Of a stretch of 16,505 nucleotides of DNA, positions 5,744 to 14,017 are shown in pieces. The translations under genes and the position numbers were made by a program. The number at the start of each line of letters is the position of its first letter. Positions within the stretch are counted from its first letter, which is position 1. This stretch comes from a virus. Location of the stretch: the UHGV virus genome UHGV-0075529. One strand, given 5' to 3'. The notes beneath the pieces are model-generated. The model saw only the letters and a list, made by a program, of their open reading frames with translations, was not told the DNA's origin and did not search any database.

Positions 5744-6669
5744 GCGGCAGCCCTCTGCTTGAGGAAACCAAGAGCCTTGACGGCCTCTATCTCAGTGAGA
5801 TCGCCAGACTCCAGAATGTCGCGCTTGAAGATACGGCGGCACAGAGGGAGAAGGTCCTCATCCCATGTTTTGTTCATGGCGATCAGGAGGTCGTTTATCT
5901 CTTTCAGCGTGTCGAGGCTGGCCGGGGTAATATCGCGCTCTGGCTGGCGCTCTGCAGCAAAGTTGATACCCTCCTCGCCCTCAGTGTTGACGTGGTCGAT
6001 AGCGGCATCCAGACGTTCGCGTCGCGGCCAGTATTTGGTTGCCTGCTTCACGACTGTCTTGAGGATCATCTGCTCTTCGTCCGTCACCCATGGACACTTC
6101 TTGCTGCTGTCCTGCTTGTACTTCTTCCAGGCTTCCGAACGGTCACGGATCGCGAAGATATCCGCTATGCGCATGGTATGGGTGAGATAGTCGCCGTCGT
6201 CAGTTTTAACCACGACATACGCCCCAACAATCTCACCGCGCTGCTCTGCGGTGTCGAAGTCGTTGTAGATGTGAATGGGTGGCTTATCTAGCCCCTCACG
6301 GCGGAACTGGTCGTTCTTCCGCACGATTGCAGACTGGCACCACTTAATTGCACCAGATTGCTGGGCGATGTGCATCAACCCCATGTAGCTAATATCGAGG
6401 CAGATAGCACCTTTTCGCGGCACAAGATAAGCAAGTTTCTGCGCCGGGTTCAGCGATATCCCGATTCCTGAAATATTCATCAGGGCGCTACGGGTGCTAG
6501 TCGGGTTGGAGAGAGCGATTTTCGCCAGGTAGTCATTGTTGGCGAAGATCTGCATGGCGAACTCAGATTCGCGCTTGAATTGAATGGACGGTTCGGCGCA
6601 AACCTGCTCGAACTCCGCCTTGAGTGGGTTAATCAGGTTGAATACCTGATCTGTAAGCAGGCCAGCCAT
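5740..6669 (-). CDS. recT: RecT-family single-strand annealing protein
   Basis: 309 aa directly upstream of exo with ATGA coupling; sequence pattern consistent with the RecT family; SD AGGAGGA upstream. Confidence 0.75.
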
Positions 6670-9143: not shown

Positions 9144-9348
9144 AAAAAATCCTCTTGTGATTCAGCACAGCCCACTCAGCTTCGAATGGACTGGAATAAA
9201 TCTTTTTTTCGCTTTGCCATAATTGCCGCTCTCCCTGAGCCCGCCTATGGTCCGACGCATGGTTTACTGTCGCGCCGTTCGACTGACCGAATCTCCACTT
9301 CGCCGCTGGCTAACTTCGCTCAGCTGTCGATGTTTCGTTTCGATGGGG

Positions 9349-9430
9349 TAAATTTAGCGTGATGCTAAATTATGCGCAATAGCAAAATGCTAAATTGTTG
9401 AATGGTTTTATTTAGCGTATTGATTAATAA
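9349..9430 (-). promoter_or_regulatory. OL operator triplet with pL promoter
   Basis: 17-bp sites TTTAGC-N5-GCTAAA at 9353-9369 (perfect), 9378-9394 and 9411-9427 (imperfect); on the minus strand -35 TTGCGC (9379-9374), 17-bp spacer, -10 TAAATT (9356-9351). Confidence 0.6.
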
Positions 9431-9466
9431 GCGATTAAAAATTTACAGCGAAGGAATTCGGGACGT

Positions 9467-10188: not shown

Positions 10189-10304
10189 ACCTGCATTGTT
10201 ACTGCTTTTAGCAAAATGATAAATATGCAAATTGCTAAATGATGCTTGCGTAGTATTTAGCATAACGCTAAACTCCAAATCAAACGACTCACCCGGAGAC
10301 ACCA
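10189..10304. promoter_or_regulatory. OR operator triplet with divergent PRM/PR promoters
   Basis: 17-bp sites at 10207-10223 (TTTAGC-AAAAT-GATAAA), 10223-10239 (weak) and 10256-10272 (perfect TTTAGC-ATAAC-GCTAAA); PR candidate -35 TTGCGT (10246-10251), 17-bp spacer, -10 TAAACT (10269-10274). Confidence 0.7.
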
Positions 10305-10538
10305 ATGAGCACTGAACTACACCGCTGGCGCAAGGCCGCCACTACCGACGAATGGGCGCAGCTCGCAAAGTTGGCTAACACGACGCCAGGTTACCTGGAC
10401 CAGATCGCCTACGGAAATCGCCGGGCATCTCCAGAAATGGCATCTGCTATCGAGAAAGGCACGAAGAATTTTCACCGCCAGGCTCCGGTCCTAAAAGAAA
10501 GCCTGGTATTCGCATCGCCGCGTGATACTGCGGCCTAA
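10305..10538 (+). CDS. cro: Cro-like / YdaS-family HTH DNA-binding protein
   Basis: 77-aa ORF divergent from cI across the operator region; SD GGAGA 7 nt upstream; HTH-like segment EWAQLAKLANTTPGYLDQIAYGNR. Confidence 0.65.
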   Translation: MSTELHRWRKAATTDEWAQLAKLANTTPGYLDQIAYGNRRASPEMASAIEKGTKNFHRQAPVLKESLVFASPRDTAA

Positions 10539-10555
10539 CCACGAAAGGGAAAGCA

Positions 10556-11122
10556 ATGCATTCACTTGCGTATCAACAGAGTACCGGACTTGAACAACGT
10601 CCGTTGATTTCGATTTATCAAAGTGTTCCGCGTAATAACCGTAAGCTAACTCGAATACGGGAGGCAGTTAAGGCCTGGCAAAAAGCTACGCCGGGCCAGT
10701 CTCAGGTTCACATTTCTCAGCTGGTTGCGAAAGAGTGGCTGGCGCGCGGCGGGAAGGGGTTGTTACTGGCAGGTTCTGAACACAACACGAAGCAGAACTT
10801 CTTCCGGATGATTAACGATCCGGGCCCGAAGAACGACAAGGGGTTGATGCTACTGATCCCCGTCATTATCGACGTGATGGCGCGGGATAACGAGAAAGTG
10901 GCGAGAGAGTTCGGTCTGGTCGCAAAGACTGAGGCCGAACTGATAGCCGAGGCCATGAAAGAGTGCACTGAAGCGCATCAGGCGAAGTTACTTGGTCAGC
11001 CGATACAACGCCTTGAGAAAGAGGTGAGAGAAGCTGCTGAAGCACTTCTGCGCTTTCTGCCCACTGAATCAATCGCCGCGGTGGTGACAAGTCTGGCCGC
11101 TATGGCGCCGGGAGTTATGTGA
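10556..11122 (+). CDS. YdaT-like protein in the CII position
   Basis: 188 aa immediately after the cro-like gene; segment KEWLARGGKGLLLAGSEHNTKQNFFRMIN resembles Rac YdaT as recalled. Confidence 0.55.
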   Translation: MHSLAYQQSTGLEQRPLISIYQSVPRNNRKLTRIREAVKAWQKATPGQSQVHISQLVAKEWLARGGKGLLLAGSEHNTKQNFFRMINDPGPKNDKGLMLLIPVIIDVMARDNEKVAREFGLVAKTEAELIAEAMKECTEAHQAKLLGQPIQRLEKEVREAAEALLRFLPTESIAAVVTSLAAMAPGVM

Positions 11123-11211
11123 TGGGAAGTATCAAAAACGGCGAAAGCCAGTCTGCTCGAACAGAACTGGCCTTCAGATGCAAATCGTGTGCACTCATTG
11201 CAGGAGGAATA

Positions 11212-11358
11212 ATGGCAAAAAATCCACGCTATTACCATACCGCTGTACATAAAAACATAACCCGCGACCGCTTCATCCGCTCGGTTAACCCGATTGTGGC
11301 AGAGAAGATGCGCGCCATCCTGGAAGAACTGAAACGTAAGGAGAGTGGCCGTGGGTAA
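11212..11358 (+). CDS. Small hypothetical protein, 48 aa (or 78 aa from ATG 11122)
   Basis: Strong SD AGGAGG 5-6 nt upstream of ATG 11212 (MAKNPRYYHTAVHKNITRDRF...); the ORF track extends to 11119 overlapping the upstream stop. Confidence 0.45.
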   Translation: MAKNPRYYHTAVHKNITRDRFIRSVNPIVAEKMRAILEELKRKESGRG

Positions 11359-12250
11359 CGTATCCAATTTAGCCGAAGCCAGAGAGGCCAGAAGGCTCCA
11401 GAAACCGCGCACGAATGACGGTAAGGGGTTTGCCTTGCTGCACCGTAAAATTATGGATGTGCCGTTCTACAAGGACGCTGAGGCGGCTCATTTATGGGTT
11501 CACCTGCTCCTGCGCGCTAATCATGAACAGACACTGGTATCGACTGATGTCGGCGATGTGATCTGCGAGCGCGGAGAGTTCATTACCGGGCGAAACACGC
11601 TGGCAATGGAAACGGGTTTGACCGCTGATCGCGTTAAATCACTGCTCCGTAAATTCCAGAACCTGGGCATGATCACCACCAAATCGAACAACCGTTTTAC
11701 TGTTCTAAAAGTGGTCAAATATGACGAATATCAGTCAAATTTTTGTCCAGCCGATGTCCAGCCAGTGTCCAGCGCAAACGCAGCTATATCAATGCCTGCG
11801 GAGGCGGAGTGTCCAGCCGATGTCCAGCCAGTGTCCACAGATAACAATATATTAAATAACTTACTACCTAACGGTAGTAAGTATGTCGCAAATGACCAGA
11901 AACCCGCTGAAGAGAAAAAGTCCCGTTTGTCATGCGATGAAGTATGGCAATGCCTGAAAGACGAACTGCCTGAAGCCCGGGGATGGAGATGCCTCACTGA
12001 TGAGCGACGCAATCTGATCCGCACCTTCTGGGGTAAGGCTAACAAAATTGCCCGCAACCTGGACGGCAAGCCGATGGATATGGACGGTTTCAGAAGCTAT
12101 CTGCGCTACATCGCTCAGAACTGCCGCTGGATGCTTGAAGACCGACCAGACCAGAAATCCGGGAAGACCTGGCGCCGCATGAAATTCGATAAGTTCCTGA
12201 CCGAAAAGCTCTACATCGAAGTGCGCGAAGGGGATCGTGATGACCGCTGA
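11345..12250 (+). CDS. Replication initiator / replisome organiser (O-like) with the origin inside the gene
   Basis: 301 aa with N-terminal DNA-binding-like region, a central linker encoded by the iterons (CPADVQPVS twice), and a conserved phage C-terminal domain; sits directly upstream of the helicase. Confidence 0.7.
   Translation: MAVGNVSNLAEAREARRLQKPRTNDGKGFALLHRKIMDVPFYKDAEAAHLWVHLLLRANHEQTLVSTDVGDVICERGEFITGRNTLAMETGLTADRVKSLLRKFQNLGMITTKSNNRFTVLKVVKYDEYQSNFCPADVQPVSSANAAISMPAEAECPADVQPVSTDNNILNNLLPNGSKYVANDQKPAEEKKSRLSCDEVWQCLKDELPEARGWRCLTDERRNLIRTFWGKANKIARNLDGKPMDMDGFRSYLRYIAQNCRWMLEDRPDQKSGKTWRRMKFDKFLTEKLYIEVREGDRDDR
11744..11882. repeat. Candidate replication origin: six phased iterons, AT-rich tract and a 24-bp palindrome
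   Basis: TGTCCAGCC-type 9-mers at 11744, 11755, 11766, 11810, 11821 and 11832 (11-bp spacing; 28-bp perfect direct repeat 11744-11771 = 11810-11837); AT-rich ATAACAATATATTAAATAAC; palindrome ACTTACTACC-TAAC-GGTAGTAAGT (11859-11882). Confidence 0.6.
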
Positions 12251-13673
12251 TTTCATGGCTGTACCACAAAACCTCGAAGCAGAGCAGAGCGTTATCGGTG
12301 GCCTGCTGCTGGATGATGACAACAGCGAGCGAGTCCAGAAGGTTCTGGCGATGCTCAAGCCTGAGTCGTTCTACAGCCGACCTCACCAGCTGATCTTTGC
12401 CGAGATGCGCCAGATGTTCCGCGACAACAAGCCAGTCGATGGTCTGACATTGTTCGACGCGCTCGAAGGCAAAGGGCTCGCTGAGCAGGTGGGTGGCTTT
12501 GCTTACCTTGCGGAGATCGCCAAGAACACTCCCAGCGCTGCAAACATCGTAGCTTACGCAGCATCAGTCCGGGAAGCCGCAATGGAGCGCTACGGTATCA
12601 ACCGCCTGACCGAAGCTACTGAGCTGCTGTATTCCCGTAACGGCATGAGCGCTACGCAGAAGTACGAGGCCATTCAGGGTATTTTCACCCAGCTCGCAGA
12701 CCATTCAAAAACCGGTAGTCGCCGTGGGTTGCGGTCGTTCGGCGAGGTTATGGATGACTGGGTAGCAGATCTGGAGAAACGCTTTGACCCTTCAGGCGAA
12801 CAGCGCGGCATGAGCACCGGCATCCCGTCACTCGACCGGCTGCTGGCGCCGAAAGGTCTGGTTAAAGGCTCTCTGTTCGTGATTGGCGCAAGGCCAAAGA
12901 TGGGCAAGACAACCCTGTACGGTCAGATGGCGATCAACTGCGCGGTTCGTGAGAAAAAGCCAGCGCTGATGTTCAGCCTCGAAATGCCGGGCGACCAGAT
13001 CCTCGAAAAACTGGTTGGTCAGAAGTCTGGAGTTAACCCGAGCATTTTTTACATGCCAGCCACGGATGACGCCGATGACCAGTACCAGGGCGATTACGAC
13101 GGCGACTTTAAGAAGGCGATCGCCACCGCCGGGCGATTGAGTGAAATCGACATGCTGTACATCGACGATACTCCTGGCCTGTCACTGGCGCACATCGTTA
13201 GCGAAAGCCGCCGAATCAAGCGCGAGAAGGGCTGCGTAGGAATGATTTTGGTTGACTACCTGACTCTGATGACCGCCGAAAAAGCCGACCGTAATGACCT
13301 TGCCTACGGGATGATCACCAAAGGGTTGAAGAACCTCGCTAAAGAGCTTGGCTGCGTCGTCGTGCTGCTGACCCAGCTCAACCGCGAACTGGAGAAGCGA
13401 GTGAATAAACGCCCGTTACCGAGCGATTCCCGCGACACAGGACAGATTGAGCAGGACTGCGACTACTGGGTTGGTATCCACCGGGAAGGTGCTTTCGATG
13501 ATAGCGTGCCGCCGGGAGAAACCGAGTTAATCCTGCGACTCAATCGCCACGGCAGTACCGGAACGGTTTATTGCAATCAGATCAACGGGGCAATTTACGA
13601 CACAGACCAGCAGGCCGCCGCCGCAGAACGACGCGGGCGTGAGCAGCAGCCGAAAAAGAAAGGGGGATTCTGA
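12240..13673 (+). CDS. Replicative DNA helicase, DnaB family (phage-encoded)
   Basis: DnaB N-terminal signature AVPQNLEAEQSVIGGLLLD...FYSRPHQLIF...GGFAYLAEIAKNTPSAANI and Walker A GARPKMGKTT; ATG at 12240 with SD AAGGGGA. Confidence 0.9.
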   Translation: MTADFMAVPQNLEAEQSVIGGLLLDDDNSERVQKVLAMLKPESFYSRPHQLIFAEMRQMFRDNKPVDGLTLFDALEGKGLAEQVGGFAYLAEIAKNTPSAANIVAYAASVREAAMERYGINRLTEATELLYSRNGMSATQKYEAIQGIFTQLADHSKTGSRRGLRSFGEVMDDWVADLEKRFDPSGEQRGMSTGIPSLDRLLAPKGLVKGSLFVIGARPKMGKTTLYGQMAINCAVREKKPALMFSLEMPGDQILEKLVGQKSGVNPSIFYMPATDDADDQYQGDYDGDFKKAIATAGRLSEIDMLYIDDTPGLSLAHIVSESRRIKREKGCVGMILVDYLTLMTAEKADRNDLAYGMITKGLKNLAKELGCVVVLLTQLNRELEKRVNKRPLPSDSRDTGQIEQDCDYWVGIHREGAFDDSVPPGETELILRLNRHGSTGTVYCNQINGAIYDTDQQAAAAERRGREQQPKKKGGF

Positions 13674-14017
13674 TGACCATAACAATCCGCGGGCAGATTC
13701 TTGCAGCCCTGCGTAACAACCCGGGCCTGAACAGTGCTCGTATTGCCAGCATGATCGGCATGACCACCAAAAAGATTTCCGGCCCGTTAAGTACGTTGTT
13801 TGCAGACGGCCTGATCGAGTTCGAAGGCAAGCACGGACAGCGGCTTTATCGGCTGACCGATTACGGCATGAAATACGCACCAGAAACAATCCCGGCTATG
13901 CCGAAGGGAAATTCGAAGCTGGTGCAGCGTACAGAGGCAAACGTGATCTGCCAGGAGTGCCGCAACAGCGCGGCGATGAGAAGGGTATTGATGGTTTGGG
14001 GGAGGGTAGGGGTATGA
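13673..14017 (+). CDS. Putative winged-helix DNA-binding protein, 114 aa
   Basis: ORF whose ATG overlaps the helicase stop (TGATG); N-terminal region has an HTH-like pattern (ILAALRNNPGLNSARIASMIGMTTKKISGPLSTL). Confidence 0.55.
   Translation: MTITIRGQILAALRNNPGLNSARIASMIGMTTKKISGPLSTLFADGLIEFEGKHGQRLYRLTDYGMKYAPETIPAMPKGNSKLVQRTEANVICQECRNSAAMRRVLMVWGRVGV

Follow-up and report, generated by a model that had tools for sequence, protein, structure and literature searches.

The viral genome UHGV-0075529 was analysed as a window of 16,505 nucleotides, which carries a replication initiator gene of the gp18/O-like type on the forward strand at 11351–12250 (299 aa). In the middle of this gene, at 11744–11882, six short direct repeats grouped in two triplets are followed by an AT-rich tract and a perfect palindrome. 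Judging from a comparison of homologous sequences, this segment is very probably the theta-replication origin of a lambdoid prophage, embedded in the gene of its own initiator where that gene encodes a disordered linker. The gene was assigned using the list of open reading frames (ORFs), its translation, a match to PHROG 345, tblastn searches and the annotation of Enterobacter phage CobraSix. The longest ORF extends from 11345 to 12250, with a GTG start codon at 11345; a start at 11351 is the more probable one, being annotated in CobraSix and fitting the N-termini of homologues.

Repeat triplet 1 (11744–11773, forward strand) contains cores TGTCCAGC at 11744, 11755 and 11766, placed in an 11 bp register and in codon phases 0, 2 and 1. 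Triplet 2 (11810–11839, forward strand) contains cores TGTCCAGC, TGTCCAGC and TGTCCACA at 11810, 11821 and 11832. The 11-mers that start at these six positions are, in order, TGTCCAGCCGA, TGTCCAGCCAG, TGTCCAGCGCA, TGTCCAGCCGA, TGTCCAGCCAG and TGTCCACAGAT. The spacer between the triplets (11774–11809, forward strand) is free in sequence and fixed in length, keeping the triplets 66 bp (6 × 11 bp, 22 codons) apart. The whole region is composed of tttt, TGTCCAGCCGA, TGTCCAGCCAG, TGTCCAGCgca, aacgcagctatatcaatgcctgcggaggcggag, TGTCCAGCCGA, TGTCCAGCCAG, TGTCCACAgat, aacaatatattaaata, ACTTACTACC, taac and GGTAGTAAGT. The initial annotation had described six repeat copies in two triplets with an 11 bp spacing and a perfect 28 bp direct repeat 66 bp apart. 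A repeat search recovered all of this: positions 11744–11771 and 11810–11837 are 100% identical, with a period of 66 and a sub-spacing of 11 nt. The exact 8-mer TGTCCAGC has five copies on the two strands of the 16.5 kb window, all within 11744–11828. The cores are asymmetric, and the repeat search detected no inverted repeat inside the array. The core offsets (0, 11, 22, 66, 77 and 88) belong to one 11 bp register, so that all cores face approximately the same side of the helix. Because 66 is divisible by 11 as well as by 3, this period preserves both the repeat register and the reading frame; the grouping of the repeats in threes is probably explained by 33 bp being equal to 11 codons. A DnaA box seen by eye in the last repeat (GTGTCCACA compared with TTATCCACA) was dropped, as it has two mismatches and is not kept in homologues.

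The AT-rich tract CAGATAACAATATATTAAATA, the presumed DNA unwinding element, occupies 11838–11858 and has 86% A+T; its presence agrees with the initial annotation, its length being 21 bp rather than the 20 bp given there. The weakest 21 bp duplex of the whole window is found at 11846–11866 (−18.4 kcal/mol, compared with a mean of −29.0 and a standard deviation of 2.6). At the right edge of the tract is the palindrome ACTTACTACC-taac-GGTAGTAAGT (11859–11882), whose 10+4+10 structure proved perfect, as had been claimed: the arms at 11859–11868 and 11873–11882 are an exact 10 nt inverted repeat with 4 nt between them. Perfect palindromes with arms of at least 10 nt occur at two sites in the window, this being one of them, compared with 0.1 per window in simulated sequences. 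The anatomy of the repeats, tract and palindrome is exact and far beyond chance.

Two other places in the window stand out in symmetry or composition. A perfect GC-rich palindrome, TCAAAAGCCTCCG-ac-CGGAGGCTTTTGA, flanked by A/T runs on both sides, is located at 19–46, at the left end of the window, and resembles an intrinsic terminator working in both directions. The most AT-rich 40 bp stretch (33/40) is in the intergenic region 9390–9450, just downstream of the 3′ end (9511) of a leftward S24-peptidase repressor gene, with a small ORF (9186–9362) on the other flank.

The initiator matches PHROG 345 (‘replication initiation O-like’) over its full length with an E-value of 3e-69, and its N-terminal half also matches PHROGs 2514 and 186 (‘DnaD-like helicase loader’; E-values of 3e-23 and 9e-15). 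In a tblastn search, the O proteins of HK620 and HK022 were 52% identical, with 100% of the query covered, and gp18 of ST64T and ST160 was 49% identical; the N-terminal domain also matched proteins of Staphylococcus and Lactobacillus phages. The end of the gene is overlapped by a DnaB-type replicative helicase gene of the P22 gp12/HK022 P type (12237–13673, forward strand; Pfam DnaB, E-value 3e-31, and DnaB_C, E-value 7e-58). Together, these matches and this neighbour bear out the earlier assignment as a replication initiator gene. The Pfam search with the full initiator gave nothing at threshold and one sub-threshold match to the MksE winged-helix family; with the domains searched separately, only sub-threshold winged-helix families were found for the N-terminal domain and none for the C-terminal domain. 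Neither an NCBIfam family nor a PDB chain sequence was matched by the initiator at E ≤ 1. PHROG 345 spans the full length of the window initiator, HK620 O and P22 gp18, and the C-terminal part of the initiator is therefore probably related to P22 gp18; an hhalign comparison of the initiator family profile with P22 gp18 was not significant (probability 1.9%). A match to lambda O obtained with hhalign was confined to the C-terminus and was due to a chimeric Erwinia phage 59 sequence in the profile, and it was not taken to indicate homology.

The AlphaFold model of the initiator, calculated from a shallow alignment (25 sequences, all at least 72% identical), has a mean predicted local distance difference test (pLDDT) score of 65.5 and a predicted template modelling (pTM) score of 0.37. 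It has a two-domain architecture, comprising a winged-helix N-terminal domain (about residues 32–133, pLDDT 67–85) and a helical C-terminal domain (pLDDT 83–90), connected by residues 133–193, which are modelled as unstructured (pLDDT < 50). The N-terminal domain, the presumed repeat-binding module, is encoded by 11432–11743 on the forward strand (about residues 30–133 counted from 11345). The C-terminal domain, the presumed helicase-recruiting module, is encoded by 11924–12247 on the same strand (about residues 194–300) and matches PHROG 24933 with an E-value of 1e-37. The repeats, AT-rich tract and palindrome are all within the coding region of the predicted disordered linker, and the duplicated peptide CPADVQPVS, which had been placed in an interdomain linker, is indeed located in residues 133–193, between the two folded domains of the model.

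The loci compared came from ten annotated phages, from viral contigs (80 loci) and from bacterial genomes (49 loci). The layout is present in all ten annotated phages and is kept at the same gene position in about 130 homologous loci, with a period of 66 in 131 of 137 and an AT-rich tract in all homologues. Nearly all Enterobacterales loci have repeat spacings of 11, 11, 44, 11 and 11; some 20 bp of AT-rich DNA come next, and then a perfect palindrome whose arms measure 9–11 nt. In phage HK620, two copies of TGTACCAGCAGATTACCAGCAAATTACCAC 66 bp apart are followed by a 23 bp AT-rich tract and the palindrome TCTCTAATAC-tgac-GTATTAGAGA, and a two-piece rep_origin is annotated in the GenBank record at the homologous gene offset. 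For phage L, the genome paper identified the likely origin with six 11 bp repeats (TGTCCAACGGA) in gene 18 and cited genetic evidence for a difference in specificity between the L and P22 replication modules (PMC8022706). The repeat of ST64T is identical to that of phage L.

Distant homologues of the N-terminal domain (loci L134–L137 and L139; 23–35% identity) come from metagenome assemblies of Holdemanella, Lachnospiraceae, an uncultured Gammaproteobacteria bacterium and a Clostridia bacterium, and from the isolate Anaerosporobacter mobilis DSM 15930. In L134–L137, the Firmicutes homologues, a shared KYDDYQ motif is immediately followed by an uninterrupted array of 3 to 11 repeats, each about 11 bp long, and then by AT-rich DNA; a TGAC-centred palindrome is present in L134 as well. 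The location of the origin inside the gene seems to be old in this initiator family. Enterobacterial-type initiator genes were also encountered in assemblies of unrelated phyla, namely on a contig of Chryseobacterium sp. 18061 (L120), which has TTGTCCAA repeats and an HK75-type palindrome as well, and on a 501 bp contig of Catenulispora yoronensis (L130); assembly contamination is the likely cause.

A repeat of 22 codons inside a coding region could also have arisen as an in-frame duplication in a tolerant disordered linker, either neutral or selected at the peptide level, and with no function of the DNA. The 66 bp period is in frame and yields the duplicated peptide CPADVQPVS, the region is predicted to be disordered, and the loss of one copy is tolerated in natural sequences. 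The fine structure of the repeats argues otherwise. Only the 66 bp repeat is in frame; the 11 bp sub-repeats of a triplet stand in three codon phases (0, 2 and 1) and encode CPA, (D)VQP and VS, which is no repeated peptide. In L117 (Silvania hatchlandensis) and L118 (a metagenome-assembled Leclercia), where the repeats are found about 49–150 nt past the KYDEYQ codons, the repeat ATTACCAA has a spacing of 12 bp where the window has 11, and the triplets recur with a period of 68 bp. The triplets are thus in different frames, and one DNA repeat encodes both NYQPNYQEDYQ and CTKTITNQIPT, the DNA repeat being retained and the peptide not. The opposite case, a homologue keeping the peptide with no periodicity of the DNA, had been named in the initial annotation as evidence that would speak against an origin; no homologue of this kind was found.

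The pattern of variation points in the same direction. Among 59 distinct close relatives, the 8 bp core is invariant in all six copies, and changes are limited to positions 9–11 of each 11-mer. Nucleotide diversity in these relatives is 0.123 in the spacer (25 of 38 sites vary), 0.02–0.03 in the triplets and 0.003 in the AT-rich tract and palindrome. At third codon positions, the tract and palindrome have a diversity of 0.005–0.008, compared with 0.09–0.12 in the parts encoding folded domains; such constraint on synonymous sites indicates a DNA-level role, because a disordered linker would not impose it. Between lineages the six cores vary as a set, and within a lineage they do not vary; the spacer is the most variable stretch. 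The layout recurs in about 130 loci, and even Firmicutes homologues have 11 bp repeats at the corresponding position. These sequence patterns show that the constraint acts on DNA and not on the peptide, and a duplication devoid of DNA function is extremely improbable.

The number of repeats varies in nature, while the flanking domains are conserved, which answers a check proposed in the initial annotation. The initiator has 1654 homologues in the protein collection; seven of the 120 best protein clusters have 277 aa, exactly 22 residues fewer, and only one triplet. These proteins (P0002–P0008), from Klebsiella and Salmonella prophages, represent natural in-frame 66 bp deletions in which the domains, AT-rich tract and palindrome are intact. 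In the Salmonella form, the single triplet TGTCCAGCCGATGTCCAGCCGGTGTCCA is followed directly by the tract and palindrome, and the replication module is otherwise intact. This form (P0008) was found on at least 20 Salmonella contigs; an example is L142, positions 6395–6470, on contig AARIXI010000034.1. The 66 bp deletion is the product expected of recombination between the two 28 bp repeats. In isolated phages of the phage collection, no single-triplet form of the window repeat type was found. A shorter protein of 246 aa (P0028) is encoded by a gene lacking the AT-rich tract, the palindrome and part of the C-terminal domain.

The palindrome was studied using 22 distinct variants aligned on the centre. 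In these variants, 97.3% of cells are paired, compared with 62% in shuffled sequences and 27–46% when the partner columns are slid. Double changes occur at all 10 pairs and one-sided changes at none, with one G-U cell in total; unpaired and G-U cells, on either strand, are restricted to the outermost pair. The loop positions T13 and A15 are invariant, T13 being a third codon position. As single-stranded DNA, the palindrome segment folds with −9.3 kcal/mol (z = −4.1). Such strict Watson–Crick compensation, with no wobble on either strand, favours an element acting at the DNA level over an RNA hairpin; it could be a dyad symmetry in duplex DNA or a hairpin in unwound DNA.

An RNA reading of the same segment was nevertheless suggested by a consensus scan, which flags 11882–11859 on the minus strand as a 10 bp stem followed by TATTTAATAT; the palindrome and T-rich tract would then constitute an intrinsic terminator, or another RNA hairpin, of leftward (antisense) transcription and would not be part of an origin. 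The tail of this putative terminator is broken by A residues and has no U-run, and the stem has only 4 G-C pairs. The lack of one-sided changes and the near absence of wobble in the 22 variants are unlike usual RNA hairpins, and the position of the palindrome is fixed relative to the repeats and AT-rich tract, as in the lambda origin. No sigma-70 promoter or promoter-like site was found on either strand in 10200–12400, that is, in or near the repeats. A terminator or other RNA hairpin is very improbable here. Rfam, searched with the entire window at gathering thresholds, gave no RNA family.

The palindrome tends to go with the part of the initiator presumed to recruit the helicase more than with the part presumed to bind the repeats: the type of palindrome correlates with the C-terminal domain with a rho of 0.59 and with the N-terminal domain with a rho of 0.39. 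One cluster of C-terminal domains has five different palindromes, and the association is too loose to separate linkage from function. To our knowledge, the role of the equivalent palindrome of the lambda origin was never settled. A tentative proposal, for which the conservation of the pairing speaks, is that the palindrome might be a required structural element of lambdoid origins, where a hairpin or cruciform formed upon opening would fix the site of helicase loading or priming.

The relationship between repeats and initiator domains was examined in 83 unique combinations clustered at 70% identity. Each cluster of N-terminal domains has its own core, including TGTCCAGC in the window type, TGTCCAAC in L, ST64T and HK75 and TTACCAGC in HK620. 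Further cores are GTGCCA(A/T/G)C of Yersinia, Klebsiella and Erwinia phages, TTACCAAC and AATCCAAA, and a central CCA is common to all of these. GTGCCAAC is likewise among the cores that go with a particular cluster of N-terminal domains. Repeat similarity correlates with the identity of N-terminal domains with a rho of 0.60 and with that of C-terminal domains with a rho of 0.25. The N-terminal domain and repeat type of the window are paired with six different clusters of C-terminal domains. In Erwinia phage 59, a related N-terminal domain and repeat type are joined to a lambda-O-type C-terminus and followed by a lambda-P-type gene, with no helicase. The sequences thus indicate that the C-terminal domain recombines independently of the N-terminal domain and repeats. 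That all six copies change in concert from one lineage to another, and stay constant inside each, points to a single binding protein as the source of selection.

From the comparisons of sequences we infer origin function, initiator binding, unwinding, recruitment of helicase and the role of the palindrome. According to the proposed mechanism, the N-terminal winged-helix domain would bind the six asymmetric 8 bp cores (TGTCCAGC), and the bound initiators, located on one face of the helix, would assemble into a single nucleoprotein complex comparable to the lambda O-some. This complex would open the adjacent 21 bp AT-rich tract on supercoiled DNA, and the C-terminal domain would then bring in the phage's own DnaB-type helicase, the product of the next gene. 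The palindrome would act as DNA; in the likeliest case it would extrude as a hairpin or cruciform, which would either stabilise or bound the opened region or designate the place where the helicase is loaded or priming begins.

Binding of the initiator or another protein to the repeats might also serve regulation only, as an autoregulatory roadblock to transcription, in handcuffing that controls copy number or in the exclusion of related phages, with initiation of replication taking place elsewhere. Arrays of repeats in plasmids also serve copy control and incompatibility, and the present data map no replication start. Cloned lambda origin repeats inhibit related phages (PMC3349717). Against initiation elsewhere, the repeats abut the least stable duplex of the 16.5 kb window, in which no second TGTCCAGC array exists on either strand. 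The order of repeats, AT-rich tract and palindrome is that of the proven lambda origin, and the combination of repeats and unwinding element is that of SPP1 oriL. Regulatory roles are, in addition, compatible with origin function, and a purely regulatory array is very unlikely.

Several points weigh against the assignment of 11744–11882 as an origin. No experimental work on this type of origin was found in the searchable literature, and the HK620 rep_origin feature and the statement on phage L are themselves predictions. The repeats are devoid of the dyad symmetry of lambda and P22, and the lambda mode of binding is not simply transferable. Single-triplet variants exist, and either three repeats suffice or the origin is defective in those prophages. 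The co-inheritance of repeats and N-terminal domains could be partly plain linkage, as the repeats begin about 10 bp after the N-domain coding region. The structure model of the initiator is of only moderate quality (mean pLDDT 65.5, pTM 0.37).

The genes around the initiator are those of the early-right operon of a lambdoid prophage or phage. Upstream are a cII-like and a cro-like gene, with the S24-peptidase repressor gene on the opposite strand, and the order of initiator and helicase genes is common to HK620, ST64T, HK75 and CobraSix. Directly 3′ of the helicase gene, as in lambda, is a gene for a Ren-like exclusion protein (13673–14017, forward strand; PHROG 142, E-value 9e-29). A 79 aa ORF at 11119–11358 on the forward strand matches PHROG 1913 with its C-terminal 48 aa (E-value 9e-26). 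This match corresponds to the small orf48/hkaW gene, located between cII/oop and the initiator gene in P22, HK022 and HK620; the label ‘tail protein’ given to PHROG 1913 is almost certainly wrong and has been propagated to many RefSeq phage records. The stretch 11352–11503 has about 85% nucleotide identity to Escherichia coli lambdoid phages (HK022, HK620 and Stx phages). This similarity extends over only about 150 nt at the start of the initiator gene, the remainder having diverged beyond the reach of megablast, and the stretch resembles a mosaic joint or else a conserved 5′ element. The nearest isolated phages over the initiator gene are Enterobacter phage CobraSix and Klebsiella phage Chronis (98% and 93.6% nucleotide identity, respectively), and the initiator is found with 95–100% protein identity in many Enterobacter-type prophages.

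The results mark the origin in Enterobacter and Klebsiella prophages and in phages including CobraSix and Chronis, in whose records the initiator is listed as a ‘hypothetical protein’ or ‘putative DNA replication protein’ and no origin is annotated. The homologous loci can be regarded as a natural experiment, in which at least six repeat-specificity groups, each with its own winged-helix domain, are freely combined with different helicase-recruiting modules. They also provide natural series, comprising the 22 compensated palindrome variants, the three-repeat variants and the variants with 12 bp spacing. This material could serve to derive the recognition rules of this type of initiator and to test what purpose the palindrome serves in lambdoid origins. 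The results do not alter the current view of how origins of this kind function.

The type of origin has already been recognised, in the HK620 annotation and the phage L paper; the window origin adds its own repeat specificity, TGTCCAGC. With the predicted origins of L, ST64T, HK620, HK022 and HK75 it shares a homologous initiator (49–52% identity, PHROG 345), the same gene position, 2 × 3 direct repeats in an 11 bp register with a 66 bp period, an AT-rich tract close to 21 bp in length, a 10+4+10 palindrome centred on T(A/G)AC and an adjoining DnaB-type helicase gene. It differs from them in the core (TGTCCAGC, compared with TGTCCAAC in L, ST64T and HK75 and TTACCAGC in HK620) and in the palindrome arms (ACTTACTACC, compared with TCTCTAATAC). 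Its N-terminal domain belongs to a separate cluster from the L/HK620-type domains, with less than 70% identity. The records of CobraSix and Chronis carry the window repeat variant, unannotated.

Repeats of plasmid origins are typically 17–22 bp long and located outside the rep gene, and no sequence homology was detected between the window system and plasmid origins with winged-helix Rep proteins. An origin inside the initiator gene has been experimentally proven for SPP1 oriL, where gene 38 (G38P) likewise contains direct repeats and an adjacent AT-rich unwinding element (PMC5737612). Both G38P and the window initiator have no AAA+ domain. The likeness to the organisers of SPP1 and Firmicutes phages is limited to the N-terminal domain, whose match to the Pfam replisome-organiser family PF09681 (E-value 0.026) is below threshold; the sequence and number of repeats and the C-terminal partners differ.

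For lambda, too, the location of the origin inside the initiator gene is experimentally proven (PMC7466680). As in the window, the origins of lambda (gene O) and P22 (gene 18) are in the middle of the initiator gene, between the regions for an N-terminal origin-binding domain and a C-terminal domain recruiting the helicase or its loader (PMC7466680). The order of repeats, AT-rich DNA and palindrome is seen in the lambda and P22 records, the lambda palindrome being GTCAGAGAATTC/GAATCCTCTGAC with 12 nt arms and a 4 nt gap, and the recognition and recruitment halves exchange as modules in these phages as well. O dimers bind the lambda origin repeats. The repeats of lambda and P22 are four dyad-symmetric units of about 20 nt with a spacing of 20/24/23, whereas the window has six asymmetric 8 bp cores every 11 bp in two triplets; the earlier remark that the repeat and palindrome sequences are not those of lambda is correct. 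The N-terminal domains of lambda O and P22 gp18 belong to Pfam PF04492 (E-values of 6e-36 and 7e-38), while that of the window initiator has no match to this family at E ≤ 1. The partner gene also differs, lambda having the loader P, which works with host DnaB, and the window phage having its own DnaB-type helicase. The lambda ori arrangement proposed in the initial annotation thus holds for layout and order and does not extend to the structure of the repeats or the family of the N-terminal domain; by sequence criteria, the likeness to lambda is one of layout, not of family.

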